Sequence record: SRR20825006_1764 | DNA: 39,735 nucleotides | Strand: one strand, 5' to 3' | Shown here: positions 20,042-30,709 of the stretch, piece by piece | How positions within the stretch are numbered: position 1 is the first letter of the stretch | Layout of the letters: each line of letters begins with the position of its first letter | The notes under the pieces: model-generated | The model's database searches: none | The model's input: only the letters and a program-made list of their open reading frames with translations | What the model was told of the DNA's origin: nothing | Made by a program: the position numbers and the translations under genes

Positions 20042-20852
20042 GGCATTGCCAACTTAACGGCACTGACCTGTAACGGTGACCAGGGGCGATTTTCTCAGGC
20101 GGTCATTTCGAGCGCATAACCTTGCCACAGGTCGAAGGCATCGGACCTTGCGTGGCGGTATGAGATGTTGGAGAGGCGGTAGCGTCGGGGTCTGAACATC
20201 GTGTTGATTTGATCGTGGGCCGCGAGAAACCTTTGCGTCTGTCGGATCGATTTGAAGCGACCCATGACCTTCTCTCGTTTGCGGGTCGGCCGATGCGAAC
20301 CCTCGATGCGGTTGTTGAGCCCTTTGTGTGCCCGATGGTCAGCTTCTGGCGCGAGGGTCCGGATCGGTTTGAGGTAACTGCGCAATTTGTCCGTAACGAC
20401 GACACGCGGTTTGCCAAAGCGGGCGATCAGCCGCGTAAGGAAACGCTTGGCAGCTTTAGCGTTCCGGCGCGGCTGCACAAGGATATCCAGCACGTCCCCG
20501 TTCGCATCCACCGCTCGCCACAACCACTGCTTCACGCCGCTGATCGGAACGACGACTTCATCCAGATGCCATTTGTCTGCAGCTGTGGGACGGTCACGCT
20601 TGATGCATTCGGCGAAATGCAGACCAAATCGGTTCACCCATTTGCGCACGGTTTCCCGGCTGACGGTTATACCGCGTTCAGCCAGCAGATCCTCGACGTC
20701 CGCCGTGCTGAGCGCGAAGCGATGATAGGCCCATATGGCATAGGCCACGACTTCACGGGGGAAACGATAGCCCTTCAGGCGCGGCATCTCAGATGGTATC
20801 CTCATGACAAAACGCTAGTCGCGCCAAGGTGCGGTAGCAAGTTGGCAATGCC
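20042..20852 (-). mobile_element. IS6-family insertion sequence (811 bp)
   Basis: Perfect 14-bp terminal inverted repeats GGCATTGCCAACTT (20042-20055) and AAGTTGGCAATGCC (20839-20852) around one transposase. No flanking direct repeat. Confidence 0.93.
20095..20805 (-). CDS. IS6 family DDE transposase, apparently intact
   Basis: KGYRFPREV, WHLDEV, WLWRAVD, VVTDK and NNRIEGSHR motifs; 236 aa. Confidence 0.95.
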   Translation of the reverse strand: MRIPSEMPRLKGYRFPREVVAYAIWAYHRFALSTADVEDLLAERGITVSRETVRKWVNRFGLHFAECIKRDRPTAADKWHLDEVVVPISGVKQWLWRAVDANGDVLDILVQPRRNAKAAKRFLTRLIARFGKPRVVVTDKLRSYLKPIRTLAPEADHRAHKGLNNRIEGSHRPTRKREKVMGRFKSIRQTQRFLAAHDQINTMFRPRRYRLSNISYRHARSDAFDLWQGYALEMTA

Positions 20853-20918: not shown

Positions 20919-21665
20919 TCATGCGGCCTCGCGATCCGTTTTGATCGGCTTGGCCGAAGGCAACACGATCACAGAAGACCCATGCACTGCACGCTTGTGC
21001 AGGTCGATAACATCATGGTTGAGCATCCGGATGCAGCCGGACGAAACTGCCTTGCCCAACTCCTGCGGGGATGCGCTGCCGTGGACACGATACAGCGTGT
21101 CCTTGCCGTTCTGAAACAGATATAGCGCCCGCGCGCCCATCGGGTTGTCCGGTCCAGGATCCATGCCACCGTTGGCTACGGAATAGGGCTCAAGCTTCGG
21201 TTGCCGCGCGATCATCGTCGCGGGCACTTTCCATCGTGGCCATTCCCGGCAGAATTGCAGGCGCGCCGCGCCCTCCCACGCAAAACCCGCCGCCCCCACG
21301 CTGACGCCGTAGCGCATTGCGGTATCCGGCCCCTGTACGAAATGCAAAAGCGCCGCGTCGGGATCGATCACGATAGTGCCCCGAGCGCGCTCGGGGAAAG
21401 GATTGATCACCTCCTGCCGCCAAAGGCGGGGCGCGATAATACCATCGGGCAAGCCAGGTATCGGCCAAGGCTCCGTCGTGATCGGGCCGTAAAAGGCGGG
21501 CAGCGGCGGATATACCGGCGCAGGGGGCGGCGCAGCCCGTGTCGGAGGTGCAGACGGTTTGCGAGCGCAGGCCGCAAGACCGCCCGCTCCGGCGAGCGCG
21601 ATGAACGAGCGTCGGGTCAAAAGAGATACTGTCGTCTTAGGGATGGGCGGGGTAGTGATATTCAT
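20919..21665 (-). CDS. L,D-transpeptidase (YkuD/ErfK family), Tat-type/lipoprotein signal
   Basis: TRRSF...LAAC signal; NPMGARALYL, YRVHG and SSGCIRM catalytic His/Cys. ATGA overlap with the dsbA-like gene. Confidence 0.92.
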   Translation of the reverse strand: MNITTPPIPKTTVSLLTRRSFIALAGAGGLAACARKPSAPPTRAAPPPAPVYPPLPAFYGPITTEPWPIPGLPDGIIAPRLWRQEVINPFPERARGTIVIDPDAALLHFVQGPDTAMRYGVSVGAAGFAWEGAARLQFCREWPRWKVPATMIARQPKLEPYSVANGGMDPGPDNPMGARALYLFQNGKDTLYRVHGSASPQELGKAVSSGCIRMLNHDVIDLHKRAVHGSSVIVLPSAKPIKTDREAA

Positions 21666-22294
21666 GTGCGGCTTGCCTCAATAGCCTCGCGCAGGGCCTC
21701 ACGGTCCATCGAACCCGGATAGATCGAGGCACCGATGATAAACGCCGGCGTACCGCGCAGGCCCAGCTGCGTGGCCTGAAAGCTGTTGCGTGAGAGTAGC
21801 CCATCCCATTTACCCCGATTGGCACGATAGGCCGCATCCAGTTCAGTCGGATCGAGGCCCGCCTCCTCAAGCGCCTCCTCTATGGCCGCGTCCGAAAGCC
21901 GCCCTTCCGTTGCCATTAGGGTTTCCAAGGCCAGCTCATACCCGCCCACGTCCACGGCGCCCAAAGCGAGCTGGGTTGCACGGACGGAGGGTGCGCCAAA
22001 AATCGGCCAGTCCTTGAGCACAAGGCGCACATCGCCGTCTTCTTCCACAACCTCGGTCAACACGGGATGGTTTGCCTTGCAATAGGGGCATTGGTAATCG
22101 AAGAATTCCACGATGGTGACGCTGCCCTGTGGATTTCCGAGCACTGGATTATCGGGGTCGAACAGAACATCCTCGACCGTGAGCTCCTGCGCCTCGAGCT
22201 GCCGCGCGGGAGGTATCAACGTCATACCCAGCAGCGCCGCCGTTCCGCCGACACCGCCCGCAAGCAGCATGTTTCTACGGTTCAAATAAGTCAT
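21662..22294 (-). CDS. DsbA-fold thiol:disulfide oxidoreductase (ScsC/Com1/DsbG-like)
   Basis: VTIVEFFDYQCPYC, GTP cis-Pro loop and N-terminal NRRNMLL twin-arginine-like signal. Confidence 0.9.
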   Translation of the reverse strand: MTYLNRRNMLLAGGVGGTAALLGMTLIPPARQLEAQELTVEDVLFDPDNPVLGNPQGSVTIVEFFDYQCPYCKANHPVLTEVVEEDGDVRLVLKDWPIFGAPSVRATQLALGAVDVGGYELALETLMATEGRLSDAAIEEALEEAGLDPTELDAAYRANRGKWDGLLSRNSFQATQLGLRGTPAFIIGASIYPGSMDREALREAIEASRT

Positions 22295-22322
22295 CTTGGT
22301 TCTCCTTTCTGATGATTCGATT

Positions 22323-23141
22323 TCATTGCGAGGCCTTCCGGCGCAGGTCGTCGATGGCCGCTAGCAAGGCCGCGCGCGAAATTTCTCCGGTGTGGACGGC
22401 CTGGAGGCTGCCGTCAGCCGCAAAAAACAGGGTACTGGGCAGCCCGAGCATGCCGAACTTTTGCATGAGGGCGGAGTCCGGGTCGCGGATCATTCCGTCG
22501 GCAGGCAGATCGTTCAGGACGAGATACTCGCCGATGACGCTATCCCGCTCGCCCTGATTGGCGAAAATGATATCGACGTCGCCCTGGGATTGCGCCACAT
22601 CAGTCATCATCGGCATCTCGCGGCGGCACGGCGGGCACCACGTCGCCCAAAGGTTCAGAACAACAGGCACGTCGCGGTTTGCCAGCGAGATCGGCGCACC
22701 GGATAGATCCTCGAATGCAGTGATGGGAAGCCGTCCCCGCGTCTCATCCGGTAACAACAAAGTCGCGACGGTAAAGACAAGAAACGCCATGCCGACACTG
22801 CCGAGGACGGGACCACCGGCGCGGGATTGACTGAGGAAGGCCGCGAACAGCGTTGCACCGAGGCCGAACGTTCCAGCCCGGATGTCGAAGCCACCTTGCC
22901 AGATCGCAAAGACGCTTAGCGGCGCGGACGCAAAAACGTCCCAATGTGCGACCACGTAGCCAAGTCGCGCGGTGATGACCCAGATTACGAAAACGGCACC
23001 GGTCCAACGGTGGATCGCATCGCGGCGGCCACGGTTCCGCCATGCGAGGAGCTCGGCGACGCCAAGAAACGCAATGACCGTCAAAACCGCGATAAAACGG
23101 TCATTGGAAAATACGAACGGACCGATGGAGATCGCGTTCAT
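22323..23141 (-). CDS. TlpA/DsbE-like disulfide reductase with an N-terminal Lgt-like membrane domain
   Basis: VVLNLWATWCPPCRREMP; N-terminal TM segments with ARLGYV and AIWQGGF. Confidence 0.9.
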   Translation of the reverse strand: MNAISIGPFVFSNDRFIAVLTVIAFLGVAELLAWRNRGRRDAIHRWTGAVFVIWVITARLGYVVAHWDVFASAPLSVFAIWQGGFDIRAGTFGLGATLFAAFLSQSRAGGPVLGSVGMAFLVFTVATLLLPDETRGRLPITAFEDLSGAPISLANRDVPVVLNLWATWCPPCRREMPMMTDVAQSQGDVDIIFANQGERDSVIGEYLVLNDLPADGMIRDPDSALMQKFGMLGLPSTLFFAADGSLQAVHTGEISRAALLAAIDDLRRKASQ

Positions 23142-24928
23142 CGGACTGCCTCCACCGCGGCCTGCACGGCGCGAGGACCGGTATCGCCAACGATGCGTGT
23201 GCCCGAGCGCTCAACCCTGTTACGGTCCAGAAAGACCATGGTCGGTGGTCCGACCGCTGCCAACCGATCCAGCATACGCTGCCCGTCCTCACCGAAATCC
23301 GTCACGTCCACCGCGATCAGGTTCACATCAGCCAGTGCCGCCTGCACGCTCGCATCTGACCAGACGTCGCGTTCGATGACCCGGCAAGTTACGCACCAGT
23401 CCGCAGTGACATAGACCAATGCGGGCGCATCGGGTTCGCCGGCAAGTGCCGCGTCCAGTGCATCGGGCGTCGTCACCGTATGGAAGGCAATCTGTTCGTT
23501 GGTTGGCCCTGCAATGCCGTTCTGCAACACTGCCAACGGGCGCAGCGGATCGTTGCCTCCCAAGGCCGCGCCGACGGCCATGATCGCACCGGTAAGCATC
23601 GACAGGACTGCGAGAGTTTTTACACCCCGGCGTCCCATGTCGGCCTCTTTGGGCAGCAGGTCCATTGCACCTGCGAACACCCCTGCCCCAATCAGCAATG
23701 TCGCCCAAAGTGCGAGGATCACCGGCCCTGGCATAAGTCGTCCGATCAGCCAGATCGCCATGCCGAGAAAGATGAGACCGAACAGACGCTTCACCCCGTC
23801 CATCCATCCGCCCGCCCGCGGCAGCACCTGTGTGCCAAGCGTACCGGCAATCATCAGCGGGATGCCTTGCCCCAGCCCCAGTGCGAACAGCGCACCGGCC
23901 CCAAGGGTGACATCTCCCGTGCCGGCGATGTACAAGAGCGCGCCCGCCAACGGTGCGGTCACGCAAGGCCCCACGATCAGCGCCGAGGTAAAGCCGAGCG
24001 TCGCCGCCCCACCAAAAGTCCCACCCCGGCTCGCTCCGGCAGAGGACAGGCGCCGTGTCCATGCGGCGGGCAGTTGCACTTCGAACAGTCCGAACATCGA
24101 CAAGGCCAGAACCACAAAAATCGCGGCAACACCGTAGACGGCCGCAGGCGATTGCAGCACGATCTGCAGGTTCTGTCCCGACCAGGCTGCCGCAACGCCG
24201 AGCAGACCGAAGGCGGACGCCATGGCCAGAACATAAACCCCGGAAAGGGCGGCACCGCGCCGGACTGTCAGGTCACGGCCCTGTCCCGTCAATATCCCCG
24301 CGAGGATCGGGAACATGGGGAACACGCATGGTGTGAACGCCAGCAGCAGCCCGAACCCCAAGAACCCGGCTAATACCATCAAGGTGCCGCCGCGTGCATG
24401 CAGTCCCTCGATCATACCGTTGTCTTGCGCCAGTGCCACGCCGTCGCTCACAGGGGCCGTTGAGGTGCCTTCGACAGCGGCCAAGGTTTCAGAAACCGGA
24501 GGATAGCAGATGCCGCCGTTCTGACAGCCCTGCCATGTCACGGTCACGGGGCCATCCACCGGTCCCATGACCGCTTGTGCGCTACTCGAGTAAATCTCGA
24601 CCGACCCGAATGTCGGATCGTCCATCGAGGCTCCCGCTGGCGTCTGCAGTGGAATCGGCGTTCCACTCTCACTTTGTGCGCCTAGTTTATCGCGGTAGAG
24701 GTAGTATCCCTCGGCAATTTCCCAAGACAGAATGCGCGTTCCGTCGGGTTGCTCGGAAACGCTGAGTGCAAATGCTTCTTGCGCAGGGAGCGGTCGATCA
24801 GACGAGAAGATTGAAGATTGAGCCGCCATCGGCGATGCGGACATGAGGGCAATCACCACTGCAAGCAGGGCGATCAGCGCGCTCTGGGTGGCGCGGAACA
24901 GTATCAGGGTCATTTTCATGTCGCTCAA
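23138..24928 (-). CDS. dsbD: Protein-disulfide reductase DsbD (alpha, beta and gamma domains)
   Basis: GYYLYRDK and QGC...CYPP (alpha), FTPCVFPM and GPCVTAP (beta), ADWCVTC (gamma). Confidence 0.93.
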   Translation of the reverse strand: MSDMKMTLILFRATQSALIALLAVVIALMSASPMAAQSSIFSSDRPLPAQEAFALSVSEQPDGTRILSWEIAEGYYLYRDKLGAQSESGTPIPLQTPAGASMDDPTFGSVEIYSSSAQAVMGPVDGPVTVTWQGCQNGGICYPPVSETLAAVEGTSTAPVSDGVALAQDNGMIEGLHARGGTLMVLAGFLGFGLLLAFTPCVFPMFPILAGILTGQGRDLTVRRGAALSGVYVLAMASAFGLLGVAAAWSGQNLQIVLQSPAAVYGVAAIFVVLALSMFGLFEVQLPAAWTRRLSSAGASRGGTFGGAATLGFTSALIVGPCVTAPLAGALLYIAGTGDVTLGAGALFALGLGQGIPLMIAGTLGTQVLPRAGGWMDGVKRLFGLIFLGMAIWLIGRLMPGPVILALWATLLIGAGVFAGAMDLLPKEADMGRRGVKTLAVLSMLTGAIMAVGAALGGNDPLRPLAVLQNGIAGPTNEQIAFHTVTTPDALDAALAGEPDAPALVYVTADWCVTCRVIERDVWSDASVQAALADVNLIAVDVTDFGEDGQRMLDRLAAVGPPTMVFLDRNRVERSGTRIVGDTGPRAVQAAVEAVR

Positions 24929-24939
24929 ATTGCCCTCCA

Positions 24940-24960
24940 GCCTTAAGCAGGGCTTAAGGC
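24940..24960. promoter_or_regulatory. OmpR/PmrA-type response-regulator box in the dsbD/regulator divergent promoter
   Basis: CTTAAG-N5-CTTAAG direct repeat (24942-24958), also palindromic GCCTTAAGC-agg-GCTTAAGGC. Matches the PmrA/QseB-type YTTAAK-N5-YTTAAK pattern. Confidence 0.7.
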
Positions 24961-25002
24961 TGACAGTACATTTGCCTAATTCGCCGGAAAGGAGATCAGA
25001 AC

Positions 25003-25668
25003 GTGCGGATACTGATTGTCGAAGACGACGCGACGCTGGCCAATGGCCTGACGGTTGGCCTGCGCCTGTCGGGCTTCACGCCGGAACTGGTCGAAACCTG
25101 CGCAGATGCAAAGGCAGCACTTTCGCAGGGCGGGTTTGCCGCCGTGGTCCTCGATATTTTGCTCCCGGATGGCTCCGGCCTCGATATCCTCTCCGGCATG
25201 CGCGAAGAGCACGACGCCACTCCTACTTTGTTGTTGACAGCCCTGGATCAAATTCGGGACCGGATTGCGGGCCTCGATCTTGGTGCGGACGACTATCTCG
25301 GCAAACCCTTCGATCTGGACGAGGTGGCTGCGCGCCTGCGCTCCATAGTGCGACGGTCGGAAGGACGTGCGCAGGCAAGGCTTGAATGGAACGGTCTGAG
25401 CGTCGATCCCGCGAGGATGTCCGGCAGCCTCGGTGGTCAAGACATCAGTTTTTCCCCGCGCGAGTTTGTGATCTTGCGCGCCTTGCTCGAACGGCCGGGT
25501 GCGATCCTGTCGAAATCCACCCTCGAAGAGCGCCTCTACGGCTGGCAGGAGGGTGTAGAGAGCAACGCGGTCGAAGTGCATGTCCACAATCTGCGCGCTA
25601 AATTGGGCGCGTCCTTTATCGAGACCGTACGTGGTGCCGGATACAAGGTGCGAAAGGAGGTCGTATGA
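25003..25668 (+). CDS. OmpR-family response regulator (QseB/PmrA/DsbR-like)
   Basis: MRILIVEDD, LDILLPDGSG, GADDYLGKPF and SNAVEVHVHNLRAKLG motifs. Confidence 0.93.
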   Translation: MRILIVEDDATLANGLTVGLRLSGFTPELVETCADAKAALSQGGFAAVVLDILLPDGSGLDILSGMREEHDATPTLLLTALDQIRDRIAGLDLGADDYLGKPFDLDEVAARLRSIVRRSEGRAQARLEWNGLSVDPARMSGSLGGQDISFSPREFVILRALLERPGAILSKSTLEERLYGWQEGVESNAVEVHVHNLRAKLGASFIETVRGAGYKVRKEVV

Positions 25669-27017
25669 ATTCGATCCGCGTCCGGCTCTTTGCAATTTTG
25701 ATGATGGCAACGGGGGCAATCTGGTGTTCGGCGTTCTTCTGGATCCAGCAATCCACCCGCGCGGACGTGGGACGTGTTCTTGACGCGCGGCTGGCCGAAG
25801 CGGGACAGATGGTTTCTTCCCTTATCTCGGACCAGCGCATTGACGTCGCACGTGCGGCCACCATCGTGACGGACATTCCCGCCGCGGACGACCGCCTCGG
25901 CGCTGAATATTCTCACAGGCTGTCCTGTCAGATCTGGTCACTGGACGGTACACTCGTGGGCCGTTCCGGCAGCGCTCCCGAGGGGCAGCTTTCCTCTTTG
26001 GATACTGGCTTTGCCGACAATACAGTCGATGGCGAGAAGTGGCGCGTCTATTCGGTGGTTAACGAGGTCCTCGGTGTGCGCGTCATGGTTGGCGATAGCC
26101 ACACCGTGCGCGACCGGTTGGTGCGTGACGTGACGAGAGGGCTCATTCTGCCGGCGTTAGTAATCCTGCCGTTGCTTGCAGGCCTGATCTGGCTCAGTGT
26201 GCAGCGGGGACTCCTGCCGCTTGAGCGATTGGCCACTGGTCTTTCGCAACGCACAGCAGACAATCTTTCGCCTGTCGCCGCAGAAACCCTGCCGCGGGAA
26301 ATCCGGCCAGTCGGCGCGGCATTAAACGGTCTCTTCGGCCGCGTCAGCGCCGCGCGAGACAGAGAGAAAGCGTTCACCGCTTTCGCCGCTCATGAGCTGA
26401 AGACGCCCCTCGCTGGGATCAAGACACAGGCACAGGTCGCGCTGAAGGCTCCCGATCAGGAAACGCGCACCGGTGCGCTTGAGCGCATCCAGTATGGCGT
26501 CGATCGGACTGATCGAATGGTGCGTCAACTCCTTGCGCTGGCACTCGTAGACAGTACGGACGTTAGCAAACTTGAGCCCGTCGATGTGTCGGCGGTTCTG
26601 CACGATGTCGTGGATGATCTGTCCCGCCGCGCCGCGAAAAAACGCGTCGCAGTAAGTTTGCCTGATGCGCGCCCCGTGATAAAAGAAAGTGATCCCATCC
26701 TTTTGACAGCGGCGCTTCGCAACGTGATCGAGAATGCCATTGCCGTAGCACCTGCGGATAGTACTGTCGAGATAACGATGGAGGCTCTGAATGAGTACCT
26801 CCGCATTGTCGTGATGGACCGGGGTCCCGGCATTGCGAACGATGATCGGGAGAAAATAACTGACAGGTTCTTCCGTGGGGTAGGTGCGACCGAAAACGGT
26901 AGCGGACTGGGCCTTGCAATCGTGGAGACCGCCGTGAAGCGCCTCGGCGGCCGACTGACGTTCGCGGCGCGCGAAGGGGGCGGCGAAACGGTCAGCCTGC
27001 ATTTCGACCGACGGTAA
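25665..27017 (+). CDS. Sensor histidine kinase (QseC/DsbS-like)
   Basis: Two TM segments, periplasmic LSCQIWS, AAHELKTPL H-box, and N, G1 (DRGPGI) and G2 (GSGLGL) boxes. Confidence 0.93.
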   Translation: MNSIRVRLFAILMMATGAIWCSAFFWIQQSTRADVGRVLDARLAEAGQMVSSLISDQRIDVARAATIVTDIPAADDRLGAEYSHRLSCQIWSLDGTLVGRSGSAPEGQLSSLDTGFADNTVDGEKWRVYSVVNEVLGVRVMVGDSHTVRDRLVRDVTRGLILPALVILPLLAGLIWLSVQRGLLPLERLATGLSQRTADNLSPVAAETLPREIRPVGAALNGLFGRVSAARDREKAFTAFAAHELKTPLAGIKTQAQVALKAPDQETRTGALERIQYGVDRTDRMVRQLLALALVDSTDVSKLEPVDVSAVLHDVVDDLSRRAAKKRVAVSLPDARPVIKESDPILLTAALRNVIENAIAVAPADSTVEITMEALNEYLRIVVMDRGPGIANDDREKITDRFFRGVGATENGSGLGLAIVETAVKRLGGRLTFAAREGGGETVSLHFDRR

Positions 27018-27112: not shown

Positions 27113-27928
27113 ATGTACAGACGCACTTTCGTCTCAGGCGTTTCAGCCGGTGTGCTGGCAATGCCCGCCCTGGGCCAAACGGCCTTGCCGTTACCGATCG
27201 GCATTCCCGACCCCAAAGGCGAAAGCACTTTGCTCCCCGCCGTTGGCTCCGGTCCCCGGCCGCTGATTTATCTGTCTCATAGGTTGGGTGGCGTCCCCGA
27301 AATGGGACGGCAGAACGACGCGCCATGGATCATGTTCGGTGCTATGCAGCGAGCGGGCTGGACGATCCTGCGCAGTGCGGATGCCGGGCCCGAGACCTAC
27401 GGCAACGATCAGGCGCTTGCCTATTGCGCCCGCATGTGCGGCAAGGCAATCGAACGCATGGACTGGGACGGGCGGCTATTCTCCCTGGGAATTTCGATGG
27501 GCGCGATTCCCGCTTTGCTGATGACATGGCGGGGTCTCTTCCCGCATCCGGTGCGTGCAGTTGCCACGGTCGCCGGCGTAATGAACCTTACTAAAATCCA
27601 TGCAAGTCCGTCTGACCGCCGCGCCCGGATCGACGCGGCTTACAACGTCACACAGCACTTCCCGTTCGAGCAGGCGAGCAAGGGTCACGATCCGCTGAAC
27701 GACTTCCACAGCTTTTCCGAAAACCGCATTCCGCTTCTGGCTGTCGCTAGTTCGGACGACGCGTTACTGCCGATAGACGTCCATGCCGGTCCAATGATCG
27801 AGACTAGTCGCGCGATCGGAAGCCCGTCCGAGTTGATGCAGATTTCGGGATCCCATATCGGAGACGAGCATTTTACCGAGCAGATGGCGGGGCGAGTACT
27901 CGATTTCTTCACGGTGCATGGTCGTTGA
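27113..27928 (+). CDS. Putative secreted alpha/beta hydrolase
   Basis: YRRTF Tat-like signal, GISMG nucleophile elbow, candidate Asp (SSDD) and His (GSH). GGAGAG RBS. Confidence 0.7.
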   Translation: MYRRTFVSGVSAGVLAMPALGQTALPLPIGIPDPKGESTLLPAVGSGPRPLIYLSHRLGGVPEMGRQNDAPWIMFGAMQRAGWTILRSADAGPETYGNDQALAYCARMCGKAIERMDWDGRLFSLGISMGAIPALLMTWRGLFPHPVRAVATVAGVMNLTKIHASPSDRRARIDAAYNVTQHFPFEQASKGHDPLNDFHSFSENRIPLLAVASSDDALLPIDVHAGPMIETSRAIGSPSELMQISGSHIGDEHFTEQMAGRVLDFFTVHGR

Positions 27929-28037: not shown

Positions 28038-28569
28038 CTAATAAAGTCCAGCCAACTCTGCTGGCTTCATCGAATGCAGGACGATCACAGAAGTGCTGTG
28101 GATGGCGCGATCATGGAGGTCGATGGCATCCTGATTGAACCTACGAATGCAGCCCGACGAGGCAGCCTTTCCAAGCTCCCGCCCCGAGGCACATCCGTGG
28201 ATACGGTAAAGCGGATCGACGTCGTTCTCGAAAAGATGAAGCGCCCGCGCGTCTAACGGATATCCGGGCACCGGATCCATACCTCCGTTTGCTACCGAGC
28301 AAGGCGCAAGCTCCGGTGACCATTTAATCCTCGCCACTCTGGCGCATACGCCGTGGCCACCTCCTGTTGCCAGAGGTCGAGTGACAAAAATGCCGTCTGG
28401 AGCGGCGGGAAATCGGATAGGGTCCGTCAGTGGTCGCTCCGTAAAAGCCGGGGAGTGGTGGAATGTGCAACAGTGTAATTGCGCGGCTGGCCGGTTCGAT
28501 CGGTGGGGGACTGGCACAATCGGCAAATCCGGCCATCGCGCCAAGGGTCATGAGACTTTCCTTTTTCAT
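28038..28569 (-). pseudogene. Degenerate L,D-transpeptidase, paralogue of 20919-21665
   Basis: C-terminal frame SVANGGMDP...ARALHLF...LYRIHG...ELGKAASSGCIR...VIVL aligns with the intact LDT. The N-terminal PPLPGFYG...PYPI is in another frame, and the central GTIVID...WPRW block is largely missing. Confidence 0.85.
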
Positions 28570-28595: not shown

Positions 28596-29207
28596 TCACA
28601 CCGCCTCGAATACCGAGTACTGAAAGCTTTGGGTTACGCCTCCGGGTGTCCGGTGGCCCACCTTTCGCGTTTCCAGCGGTTGAAACGATGGCCCAACGCG
28701 CGCAGAAAGGGCCTCGGAGGAATAACGCTGCACCGGCAGACCGCTGCACCGCTCGGGGCCGTCTTCGGCGAATGTGGCCATGATCACAATCGAGCCAGGC
28801 GTGGTTGCCAATTTCAGAGCCGATAAATAGGCATCCTGAGATGCGCGGTTGGTCAAGAAATGAAACGCCGCCCGGTCATGCCAGACGCCTGATGTACGCG
28901 CGGGCCGCCAGTCCGTGACGTCCTGCACAACAAAGGTCGGCTGCACGTCCCGCCCGATCAGACGATCCCGGACCACATCGAAACTTCTGTCCGACAGGTC
29001 CAGCAACGTCACATCTTCGACGCCGTTGTCCAGCAACCGGTCCACCAGCCGCGACGTCCCTGCGCCGATATCGACAATACCCCGCGCCGCAGCATCCCGA
29101 TGGGTCAGGATCAGATCGAGGCTCGGCTGAGCGTCATTCTGAAACCACGACACCGTCTCCTCGGACTTTGTGGCGTAGACGCTGTTCCAATGATCGCGCT
29201 TTTCCAT
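28596..29207 (-). CDS. Class I SAM-dependent methyltransferase
   Basis: HWNSVY..K....VSWFQ, VDIGAG motif I, WHDRAAFHFLT and GPERCSGLPV. Confidence 0.9.
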   Translation of the reverse strand: MEKRDHWNSVYATKSEETVSWFQNDAQPSLDLILTHRDAAARGIVDIGAGTSRLVDRLLDNGVEDVTLLDLSDRSFDVVRDRLIGRDVQPTFVVQDVTDWRPARTSGVWHDRAAFHFLTNRASQDAYLSALKLATTPGSIVIMATFAEDGPERCSGLPVQRYSSEALSARVGPSFQPLETRKVGHRTPGGVTQSFQYSVFEAV

Positions 29208-29221
29208 TGCTTCGACCCTTC

Positions 29222-30709
29222 CTATCCGACCGTGAACTGTCCCATCATGCCCGCATCCTCATGTTCGAGAATGTGGCAGTGGTACATGAATGGGGTTTCT
29301 TTCTCGGCCCGTTTGTCGAAGCGGACGAGGATTTCGGTGGGGCCGTCGACCAACACCACGTCCTTCATGCCGATCCGCGCCGGATCGACCGCCCGACCGC
29401 CCATCGTCACGACCTGAAACGACGTGCCGTGCACGTGGAACGGATGCACCATCATATCAGCGTTTATGCGCCACAACTCGGTCTCGCCCATGGGAACGGC
29501 CAGGTCGATGCTCCCCATGTCGTAGGACTCCCCGTTGATGCCCATGATCTGACCGTCGCGGCCGATCAGATTGTTGAACATGCCGCCCATCATCGACCCT
29601 GTATGGACGTTCAGTGTGAAATCGCGGGTGCGGACCGGAGCGCCGAGATCGGGCAAATCAGACGGCAAAGACGCAGGTAGTGTCGCGGGCCCGGTCTCTG
29701 CGGCATCGCCCACGTCAAACGACATGATCTCAAACGGGGCGTCATCGCTTCCGCTGCCCATCTTGCCGCCGCCATTCATCATGCCACCGCCGCCCATCAT
29801 GCCGCCGCTGCTGACATTGCGTGAAACCAACCGGACAGCTGACCGGTCCGTGAAATTAACGACGATCTCGGCCCGCTCCGCCGGGGCCAGGCGCAGGCCA
29901 TTCATGGCGATCGGCGCGGGCAGGAGCCCGCCATCGCTGGCGACCTGGTGGAACTGACGCCCGTCGTTGAAGCTGAAATCATACATCCGGGCGTTCGAGG
30001 CATTGAGCAGACGCAGGCGCACCAGCCCGGCGGGCACCGTCAGTGTAGGTCGGATCGCGCCGTTGACCAGCATCTCAGTGCCGCGGAACCCCTGCATCCT
30101 GTCCATCATGCCAGGATCGTAAGACATGCGGCCGGACCGGTCGAAATTGCGGTCTTGCACGATCAGCGGGAAATCGTTCGTGCCGTAATCGCGGGGCAGC
30201 GGATCGACCGCATCGGGATCGTCGATGATGATCATGCCTGCAAGGCCGCGATAGACCTGATCGGCGGTGCGCCCGTGGACATGGCTGTGATACCAGAGCG
30301 TCGCGGCGGGATGATCCACCGGCAACTCGGGCGACCAGGTCCTGCCCGGATCAAAGGCCAGTTGCGGCCCGCCGTCGAGATGTCCGGGCACGTGCATGCC
30401 ATGCCAGTGCGCGGTGATGGGATCATCGGTGCGATTGACCACGTCGATATTTGCCGTGCGTCCACGCTGAAACCTCAGCAGCGGACCCAGATAATCCTGC
30501 TCATAGCCTAGCGTATCGGATGCGGCGCCCGACATGAATTCGCGCGTGCCTTTCATCGCGGTCAGGGTATTGCCCGCGCCGGGCCCGACCTCCATCACTT
30601 GGGGGATCGGCAAAGGCGCACCGGGTTCTGCGGCGACCGCGCGGCGGGTCAGCAAGGCTGGCGTGGCGAGAGTGGCAGCGGTGAGGGTGAGGAACCGGCG
30701 GCGTTTCAT
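29222..30709 (-). CDS. Multicopper oxidase (CueO/laccase-like), Tat-exported
   Basis: RRRFL signal; Cu motifs HWHG, WYHSH, HPFHVHG and HCHILEHEDAGM; Met/Gly-rich insert. Confidence 0.93.
   Translation of the reverse strand: MKRRRFLTLTAATLATPALLTRRAVAAEPGAPLPIPQVMEVGPGAGNTLTAMKGTREFMSGAASDTLGYEQDYLGPLLRFQRGRTANIDVVNRTDDPITAHWHGMHVPGHLDGGPQLAFDPGRTWSPELPVDHPAATLWYHSHVHGRTADQVYRGLAGMIIIDDPDAVDPLPRDYGTNDFPLIVQDRNFDRSGRMSYDPGMMDRMQGFRGTEMLVNGAIRPTLTVPAGLVRLRLLNASNARMYDFSFNDGRQFHQVASDGGLLPAPIAMNGLRLAPAERAEIVVNFTDRSAVRLVSRNVSSGGMMGGGGMMNGGGKMGSGSDDAPFEIMSFDVGDAAETGPATLPASLPSDLPDLGAPVRTRDFTLNVHTGSMMGGMFNNLIGRDGQIMGINGESYDMGSIDLAVPMGETELWRINADMMVHPFHVHGTSFQVVTMGGRAVDPARIGMKDVVLVDGPTEILVRFDKRAEKETPFMYHCHILEHEDAGMMGQFTVG

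Follow-up and report, generated by a model that had tools for sequence, protein, structure and literature searches.

An L,D-transpeptidase gene in a candidate DsbRS-type dsbD-tlpA-scsC-like operon of an alphaproteobacterial plasmid

Alphaproteobacteria lean heavily on LD-transpeptidation, and copper reportedly inhibits the L,D-transpeptidases (LDTs), as the title of a 2018 paper by Peters and colleagues ("Copper inhibits peptidoglycan LD-transpeptidases") has it. A Science paper of 2009 is said to hold the original account of how DsbG protects the LDTs of Escherichia coli, and one of the LDTs of that species, LdtD, is reportedly Cpx-controlled and activated on outer-membrane assembly defects. 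DsbD passes electrons to periplasmic thioredoxin-fold proteins. A review of the Scs proteins (PMC10907172) records that DsbG preserves the catalytic Cys of LDTs, that ScsC and DsbG both have a CPYC active site and similar redox potentials, and that reports on Salmonella ScsC describe a reductase as well as a promoter of disulfide formation. For Pseudomonas aeruginosa, the DsbRS preprint (bioRxiv 10.1101/2020.08.17.255257) describes dsbRS as divergent from dsbDEG, with DsbR binding the spacer at TAA-N7-TTAAT and with a ChIP-seq consensus of TTAA-N7-TTAA. In the same work the DsbS sensor domain (residues 28-146) binds copper, Cys82 is indispensable, this residue and His235 are shared by every cognate considered there, and dsbRS is found beside dsbD/dsbE/dsbG/dsbA homologues in several phyla, on chromosomes and plasmids. 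Here we describe positions 20,919 to 27,017 of a 39,735-nucleotide stretch of sequence record SRR20825006_1764 (the whole stretch is called the window below), where a candidate DsbRS-type pair is divergent from an operon of dsbD, tlpA, a gene for an ScsC-like oxidoreductase and an LDT gene. LDT genes recur at related sensor loci, and they are the subject of this work.

The minus-strand unit runs dsbD-tlpA-scsC-like-ldt. Its first gene (23138..24928, -) encodes a full-length DsbD (NCBIfam NF001419, 478.8 bits, cut-off 330) with the Pfam domains DsbD_N, DsbD_TM and Thioredoxin_7, corresponding to the alpha, transmembrane (TM) and gamma domains, and with six Cys at 135/141, 201/322 and 512/515. 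As listed, the gene starts with a TTG at 24928, and in-frame ATG codons come 9 and 15 nt downstream. An ATGA overlap leads into the gene (22323..23141, -) for a TlpA/ResA/DsbE-type thioredoxin with the active site WCPPC (Cys169/172), which is matched by Pfam AhpC-TSA/Redoxin/Thioredoxin, by NCBIfam ResA/TlpA and, at about 1e-10, by ResA/TlpA structures of the PDB. Its N-terminal part is a polytopic membrane domain, for which three to four helices are predicted and which gives a weak LGT match over residues 16-106 (PF01790, 25.5 bits, just over the cut-off; the N-terminus of Lgt). The full-length architecture of this protein, a membrane domain within residues 1-130 plus a thioredoxin, is kept in related loci. 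After a gap of 28 nt comes the gene for a periplasmic thiol oxidoreductase of the ScsC family (21662..22294, -; 210 aa), and a second ATGA overlap joins it to the LDT gene (20919..21665, -; 248 aa; Pfam YkuD, 1.1e-16). On the other side of a 74-bp spacer, divergent from dsbD, are the genes for a DsbR-like response regulator (RR) of the OmpR/PmrA type (25003..25668, +; Pfam Response_reg and Trans_reg_C) and, overlapping it, for a DsbS-like sensor histidine kinase (HK; 25665..27017, +; Pfam 2CSK_N, HisKA and HATPase_c). The spacer holds the direct repeat CTTAAG-N5-CTTAAG (24942..24958), a candidate DsbR-type site, which reads CTTAAG-CAGGG-CTTAAG, i.e., TTAA-GCAGGGC-TTAA, an exact TTAA-N7-TTAA. 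The kinase has predicted TM helices at residues 6-27 and 155-184 and between them a periplasmic domain (about residues 28-154), which contains Cys88 within LSCQIWS. The preliminary description of this DNA had claimed the four-gene unit with its two ATGA overlaps, the divergence from a two-component pair with the repeat, and the periplasmic Cys of the kinase, and all of these were read in the sequence. Assembled contigs of two RNA-library runs from one sample, which carry no strand or start information, include one of 3673 nt (20953-24625) and one of 3771 nt (20919-24689) that bridge all three junctions from LDT to dsbD, consistent with co-transcription of these genes.

The third gene had been called DsbA-fold with CPYC and GTP motifs. 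Fold and motifs were retained, as the translation has the CPYC active site, the GTP (Thr-cisPro) loop and a twin-arginine signal and matches Pfam DSBA/Thioredoxin_4, and the family was revised: by its sequence the product belongs to the ScsC family and is neither DsbA nor DsbG. The PDB sequence matches are 3gyk (1.3e-31), 7rgv (1.3e-26; presumably Caulobacter ScsC), Salmonella 4gxz ("Suppression of copper sensitivity protein", 2e-19) and, at about 1e-19, 6nen/6mhh/4xvw, which we take to be Proteus ScsC, with E. coli DsbA at only 4e-3. Membership of the DsbC/DsbG family was considered and rejected, with no match to that family in Pfam or NCBIfam and a fit to DSBA/Thioredoxin_4 and to ScsC structures; the ScsC-like protein may work like DsbG without being a member of its family. 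There is no room in it for a long N-terminal trimerisation helix. The twin-arginine (RR) motif is present in 57 of 62 ScsC-like homologues, and the LDT has such a motif too; export of both in folded form by Tat is possible, and would be unusual for a thiol oxidoreductase.

The recurrence of the LDT was followed from the kinase side and from the LDT side. The kinase was found at E <= 1e-70 in 22 of the 301 genomes sampled from the order, representing 13 of 112 genera. The 21 loci other than the window were scored by tblastn, 12 of them also by Pfam on a hand-trimmed set of 117 open reading frames (ORFs), in which small or overlapped genes of the loci scored as having no LDT could be missed; tblastn at E 1e-4 found none in these loci either. 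Gene calling based on the GC content of third codon positions (GC3) was discarded for the related loci, where real and shadow ORFs were not separated, and Pfam on the ORF subset was used instead. A YkuD gene is present in the locus in 13 of the 22 genomes (8 of 13 genera), dsbD in nine and an ScsC-like gene (at least 50% identity) in ten. With 13 YkuD matches in the 5.7-Mb genome of the window, the chance of finding one in a random 6 kb is about 1-2%; the observed frequency is far above this expectation, and the LDT linkage is no accident. Rare linkage in a synteny survey of the LDT with dsbD/dsbRS, which the preliminary description had named as evidence against its proposal, is thus not what the kinase loci gave.

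Gene order varies among these loci. DsbD-TlpA-ScsC-LDT is the order of the window and of genome G190, DsbD-TlpA-LDT-ScsC that of G262 and G074, DsbD-LDT-ScsC that of G107, G118 and G133, and RR-HK-LDT-ScsC that of G025; G188 combines RR-HK-LDT with DsbD-TlpA and a second set, LDT-ScsC-TlpA. In G101, G039 and G032 an LDT is the only divergent gene, and G209 has two LDTs in tandem. In loci with both an LDT and an ScsC-like gene, the two adjoin, abutting or overlapping, in either order. A phylum-level sample added four more alphaproteobacterial families, of which two have an LDT (one as DsbD-ScsC-LDT, one as LDT alone) and two have dsb genes only. It also held two DsbS-type loci from outside the Alphaproteobacteria, with DsbD-TlpA and no LDT, too few to set a taxonomic limit.

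From the LDT side, 80 related loci, some of them on short contigs, were searched by tblastn with the window proteins (E 1e-8, coverage 50%). DsbD and an ScsC-like protein are encoded beside the LDT in 14 of them: two loci identical to the window, four of Rhodobacterales (Pelagivirga, Oceaniovalibus and two of Roseovarius, with the sensor pair in three) and eight of Bradyrhizobiaceae. In the latter the LDT, about 49% identical to that of the window, comes first and is followed by a DsbD-family gene and then by a DsbA/ScsC-like gene. The sole annotated example, Afipia broomeae (L055, 7947-11421), has a DsbD-family gene of ScsB size (699 residues) that overlaps the LDT stop codon.

Taking these data together, we lean slightly towards reading the locus as an alphaproteobacterial, plasmid-borne envelope thiol-stress module of the DsbRS-dsbDEG type with a co-regulated, Cys-dependent LDT, whose catalytic Cys211 the ScsC-like protein guards. 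In such a module, periplasmic copper or oxidant would be sensed through Cys88 of the kinase, by analogy with Cys82 of P. aeruginosa DsbS. The phosphorylated regulator would then bind the TTAA-N7-TTAA box, the conservation of which points this way, and would turn on dsbD-tlpA-scsC-ldt as well as its own operon. DsbD would, by the chemistry of its family, draw electrons from the cytoplasm and hand them on to the TlpA-like protein and the ScsC-like one. The lipoprotein LDT, made at the same time, would restock LD-transpeptidase activity when the LDTs already in place have been poisoned at the catalytic Cys. The task of keeping Cys211 of the new enzyme reduced or free of copper would fall mainly to the ScsC-like protein, its translationally coupled neighbour, in the role of DsbG. 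Regulator switching and LDT co-production are suggested here as far as the co-location of the genes goes. The guardian of Cys211 could be the ScsC-like protein, the TlpA-like protein or both, and the LDT may serve as a spare or as a reinforcing enzyme under stress. We give better than even odds to the LDT being a co-regulated stress member, and roughly even ones to the ScsC-like protein and the LDT being a specific reductase-client pair.

Several observations weigh against this reading. Nine of the 22 sensor loci have no LDT, and in four others LDT genes are present and no dsb gene was found (L111, with two tandem LDTs, L119, L123 and L124); the module can thus do without a dedicated reductase, and the redox contact might be an indirect one. 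The "self-contained module" of the preliminary description therefore holds for the window, where dsb and LDT genes stand together, and fails in these four loci, which also make the LDT look like a primary output of the regulon and no add-on. On the LDT side, no dsb gene was found in the available flanks of 66 of the 80 loci, some contigs being short. Full-length LDTs 54-82% identical to that of the window occur in 23 other genomes of the 301-genome sample, and only two of these 23 show a dsb or sensor gene at a distance of up to about 9 kb; with so few linked copies from this side, the lineage is accessory and mostly unlinked. In L086 (9175-9876, -) a premature TAG cuts about 25 residues off the LDT that follows directly on the kinase, which marks either a pseudogene or an error of sequencing; another LDT lies farther away in this locus, beside ScsC-like and TlpA-like genes. 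The ScsC-like protein is no homologue of DsbG, and its direction of action is uncertain, because Salmonella ScsC has been reported to act both ways. The case for copper induction consists of homology and a motif. Only about 15-30 nt separate the box from the possible start codons of dsbD, which makes the promoter geometry uncertain, and RNA contigs also cross the 74-bp spacer; cover by these contigs has gaps at 24.6-24.9 kb, and neither the gaps nor the spacer-crossing contigs are interpretable.

The four sensor loci with an LDT beside the sensor pair and no dsb gene found, and likewise L148, would also fit a shared regulon and nothing more, in which stress induces the LDT to fortify the wall or as a spare enzyme, the Dsb/Scs proteins perform general thiol repair, and no specific client exists. 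LDT copies that have a copper oxidase or P-type ATPase gene for a neighbour and no Dsb partner agree with this, as does the Cpx control of LdtD in E. coli, a subject cited by title in an LDT review. A shared promoter does not, however, require the LDT and ScsC-like genes to be immediate neighbours, often overlapping and in both orders, and Bradyrhizobiaceae retain the trio of LDT, DsbD-family and ScsC-like genes, with no similar two-component system detected up to 8 kb away. We regard the shared regulon as a serious contender that is nonetheless rather unlikely.

A guarded, Cys-dependent LDT, as proposed above, presupposes that the YkuD protein is an L,D-transpeptidase. It has a twin-arginine motif and a lipobox (Cys33), which are found in 40 and 48 of 53 LDT relatives, respectively. 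The YkuD domain (PF03734) scores 62.1 bits with a cut-off of 23.4, and the catalytic His195 and Cys211 (SSGCIRM) are invariant in 141 of 141 LDT sequences. The AlphaFold model (predicted local distance difference test, pLDDT, 86.7) matches the solved LDTs 4lzh, 6v45 and 1y7m, and the closest solved relative in a profile search was 6v45 (E 1.5e-63, 44% identity). This Brucella melitensis entry is filed as "probable carnitine operon oxidoreductase CaiA", yet it has the YkuD fold; it comes from structural genomics and is uncharacterised. That fact leaves some room for a YkuD protein that is no cross-linker and acts instead as a DpaA-like amidase, as an L,D-carboxypeptidase, or as a thiol-based copper/oxidant sink or co-sensor. 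So do the several activities known among YkuD-fold proteins, the weak, sub-threshold NCBIfam matches of the window LDT (LdtE, 43 bits, cut-off 480; the carboxypeptidase ElsL, 24.5 bits) and a Legionella YkuD protein reported to have phenotypes without a change in muropeptides. On the other side, the His, the Cys and the SxGCIR motif do not vary, the modelled fold fits bona fide LDTs, and, apart from the active-site Cys and His, the LDT sequence gave no sign of a metal site; a different activity is quite improbable.

A single Cys is present in the last 190 residues of 20 of 27 linked LDTs, which speaks for a target of sulfenylation or copper and not for a client of disulfide folding or isomerisation. 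A second one, Cys139, is confined to the window's own LDT clade; its role as an intramolecular disulfide partner was considered and dropped, since just five of the 27 linked LDTs and seven of the 114 unlinked ones have it. A maximum-likelihood tree of the 141 LDTs (LG+G4) places the linked ones in a clade of six with the window (support 95), in a Bradyrhizobiaceae clade and in several others, at least 5-7 clades in total, and requires at least seven changes between linked and unlinked; branch support is by the Shimodaira-Hasegawa-like approximate likelihood-ratio test (SH-aLRT) only, several branches are long and the sample is biased by the choice of loci. Two of the linked LDTs have recent paralogues among the unlinked LDTs of their own genomes. 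Linked LDTs scattered in this way over the tree suggest repeated recruitment rather than one inherited cassette.

The regulatory half of the proposed module matches the DsbRS type by the features that the preprint describes, namely the regulator and kinase domains, the Cys and His, the box and the divergence from a dsbD-first operon, as the preliminary description had it. The H-box His of the kinase is His243, and its spacing from Cys88 is 155 residues vs. 153 in DsbS (the latter from the numbering of the paper), with Thr at H+4 vs. Ser239 in DsbS. The sensor Cys stands within L-x-C-Q-(I/V)-W, invariant in the 21 of 21 kinases of related loci that were aligned (four loci were left out). It is present in all four further alphaproteobacterial kinases, and the Cys-Gln motif was also found in two non-alphaproteobacterial kinases that adjoin dsbD-tlpA. 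Of 25 related loci, 20 have the box, at a distance of 49-76 nt before the regulator gene or, in L107, of 163 nt. Three of the four further alphaproteobacterial loci have it as well; so do all 13 LDT-bearing sensor loci, vs. four of the nine without LDT. Promoter and terminator scans of the locus stayed at chance level.

Might the pair respond to another cue (iron, pH or host signals, as for PmrAB/QseBC), the whole being a general envelope-remodelling unit? The best NCBIfam matches are indeed to PmrA and QseB for the regulator and to QseC/PmrB for the kinase, and CTTAAG-N5-CTTAAG resembles what we take to be PmrA-box half-sites. The scores are, however, far below the cut-offs (251 vs. 475 bits; 208 vs. 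330-345 bits), and the invariant Cys of the periplasmic CQ(I/V)W motif and the linkage to dsbD are hallmarks of DsbS. Moreover, 13 non-alphaproteobacterial kinase loci of the phylum-level sample that have no detectable Cys motif have no detectable dsbD, LDT or box either; ten of these kinases have no or one Cys in the sensor part, and for three the match stops short of that part. In the non-alphaproteobacterial L154 and L160 only a different TTAA-N7-TTAA match was present, at about -110. These 15 non-alphaproteobacterial loci are other branches of the QseC/PmrB-like family, and another cue for the pair of the window is very unlikely.

The locus has a mobile setting. In a sister strain the window region is located on a 233-kb conjugative plasmid, and in PLSDB the 6.1-kb region matches 324 records, among which an LDT is named together with dsbD, TlpA, regulator and kinase in Limimaricola, Paracoccus, Agrobacterium, Roseinatronobacter, Rhizobium and Pseudorhizobium. 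Agrobacterium plasmid pAtK224b has dsbD-TlpA-LDT-DsbA family-LDT, divergent from RR-HK. An IS6-family insertion sequence (IS) occupies about 20042-20852 of the window (transposase 20095-20805) and ends 67 bp beyond the LDT stop codon; RNA-library contigs have loose ends exactly at 20042 and 20852, the boundaries of the IS repeat. This element, the conjugative plasmid and a degraded LDT copy 7 kb away might suggest that mobile DNA dropped the LDT beside a dsb operon by accident, which is barely credible, because three other genera have the same four-gene order without the IS, namely Roseovarius (L008, L009), that of G190 (L081) and, lacking TlpA, Oceaniovalibus (L004), these genes stand in other orders in at least eight genera and in Rhizobiales, the LDT gene is coupled to its upstream neighbour by ATGA, and the 40-84% protein identities argue against these loci being one recently spread mobile element. 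The IS6 element is a boundary of the unit and not the creator of the LDT linkage.

The degraded copy (28062-28569, -) comes after genes for a methyltransferase (28596-29207) and a CueO-like oxidase (29222-30709). Its pieces lie in three frames and correspond to LDT residues 16-69, 70-96 and 156-240 (67% identity in the last), with frameshifts, with residues of about 97-155 absent and with SSGCIR kept. A conserved oxidase-methyltransferase-LDT operon was considered and rejected, as no CueO-like match was found beside any LDT in 80 + 27 loci. Further along the strand, 96 bp past the kinase gene, there is a 271-residue ORF (27113-27928, +) with a GISMG (GxSxG-like) motif and without a Pfam or NCBIfam match. 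It was seen only in the identical loci L001 and L002 and on the sister-strain plasmid, which places it outside the conserved module.

Copper-related genes accompany LDTs elsewhere too. Six of the 13 genomic YkuD matches are on the 234-kb replicon to which the window belongs, where a metal island outside the window (L166, G000:C38:39000-58500) has three more YkuD genes, one of them directly after a P-type ATPase gene, along with two CDF transporters, a MerR regulator, two SCO1/SenC proteins, DsbB-like and DsbA-like proteins, PCuAC, an M23 peptidase, DUF411, ZIP and extra copies of LspA and Lnt. According to the introduction of a Caulobacter paper, copper interferes with peptidoglycan and lipoprotein maturation, and the wall and lipoprotein enzymes of the island look like backups for copper-sensitive maturation steps. 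On Sinorhizobium meliloti plasmid pSmeAK21b (L170, 1952-7564), an LDT of about 50% identity ends a cluster of TolC, copper oxidase, azurin-family and copper-binding genes with no dsb genes, after a 1.2-kb gap before the LDT in the PLSDB gene table; another Sinorhizobium LDT copy has no copper context.

A wider reading can be offered tentatively, and we think it possible rather than probable. LDTs would be a core and unrecognised output of alphaproteobacterial copper/thiol-stress regulons, ScsC-type reductases their dedicated guardians, loss of LD-transpeptidation a main route of copper killing, and the module a mobile countermeasure, all in conjunction with plasmid-borne spare lipoprotein LDTs that are wired to a DsbS-type sensor or set in copper-efflux or copper-oxidase islands. 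In the narrower, favoured reading of a co-regulated and guarded LDT, three known facts (DsbD-fed protection of LDTs, copper inhibition of LDTs and the DsbRS copper switch) are joined in one operon, repeatedly and in varied orders. It predicts that the ScsC-like reductase has the LDT as a specific client and that a circuit leads from sensor to cell wall, and it offers a natural substrate candidate for the ScsC family, the physiological clients of which are poorly defined. It also suggests why alphaproteobacterial copper-resistance plasmids carry enzymes of peptidoglycan and lipoprotein maturation, and the recurrence of the arrangement suggests that related bacteria protect or replace a copper-sensitive LDT under stress.

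The statement of the preliminary description that this combination had no known account agrees with the literature searched. In the full texts searched, which took in few subscription journals and the DsbRS work as a preprint, no description of an operon of an LDT with dsb, scs or copper genes was found. The word "transpeptidase" is absent from the DsbRS preprint (bioRxiv 10.1101/2020.08.17.255257), the Scs review (PMC10907172) names LDTs only as DsbG substrates and never as neighbours, an ScsB paper (PMC3322552) mentions no transpeptidase, YkuD or ErfK, and a 2025 review of LDTs has neither DsbG nor DsbD in its text.

Among the described systems, E. coli LdtD resembles the LDT of the window in having an envelope-stress two-component system placed over an LDT gene. 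It differs in sensor family and signal and in lacking co-encoded redox partners, and it is a large enzyme of the YcbB type, whereas the LDT here is a small lipoprotein related to Brucella 6v45. With the DsbD-DsbG-LDT relay of E. coli the locus would share, by analogy, a DsbD-fed CPYC reductase that keeps a catalytic Cys reduced in the oxidising periplasm; the E. coli genes, however, are unlinked and under no known common copper sensor, and DsbG is a dimeric protein of the DsbC family, in contrast to the ScsC/DsbA fold found here. The Scs system of Salmonella, Proteus and Caulobacter, as described in PMC10907172 and PMC3322552, has in common with the locus a CPYC protein of the ScsC type, a membrane-anchored thioredoxin partner and an electron feed by the DsbD family, and a link to copper tolerance exists on the Scs side. 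Unlike it, the locus has a canonical DsbD in place of ScsB, no ScsA, a DsbRS-type pair in place of CpxR regulation, and no room for the trimerisation helix. The nearest likeness is to P. aeruginosa DsbRS-dsbDEG, with a divergent RR-HK pair, a dsbD-first operon, a TTAA-N7-TTAA box, a second gene of the TlpA/DsbE type and a periplasmic sensor Cys (Cys82 there, Cys88 here) at a similar distance from the His. Set against this are the ScsC/DsbA fold of the third oxidoreductase, which is DsbG in P. aeruginosa, the YkuD LDT in the operon, and a marine alphaproteobacterial host with the module on a plasmid. The regulatory half is hence of an already known kind, and the new part is the LDT as a recurrent, and sometimes the sole, member.

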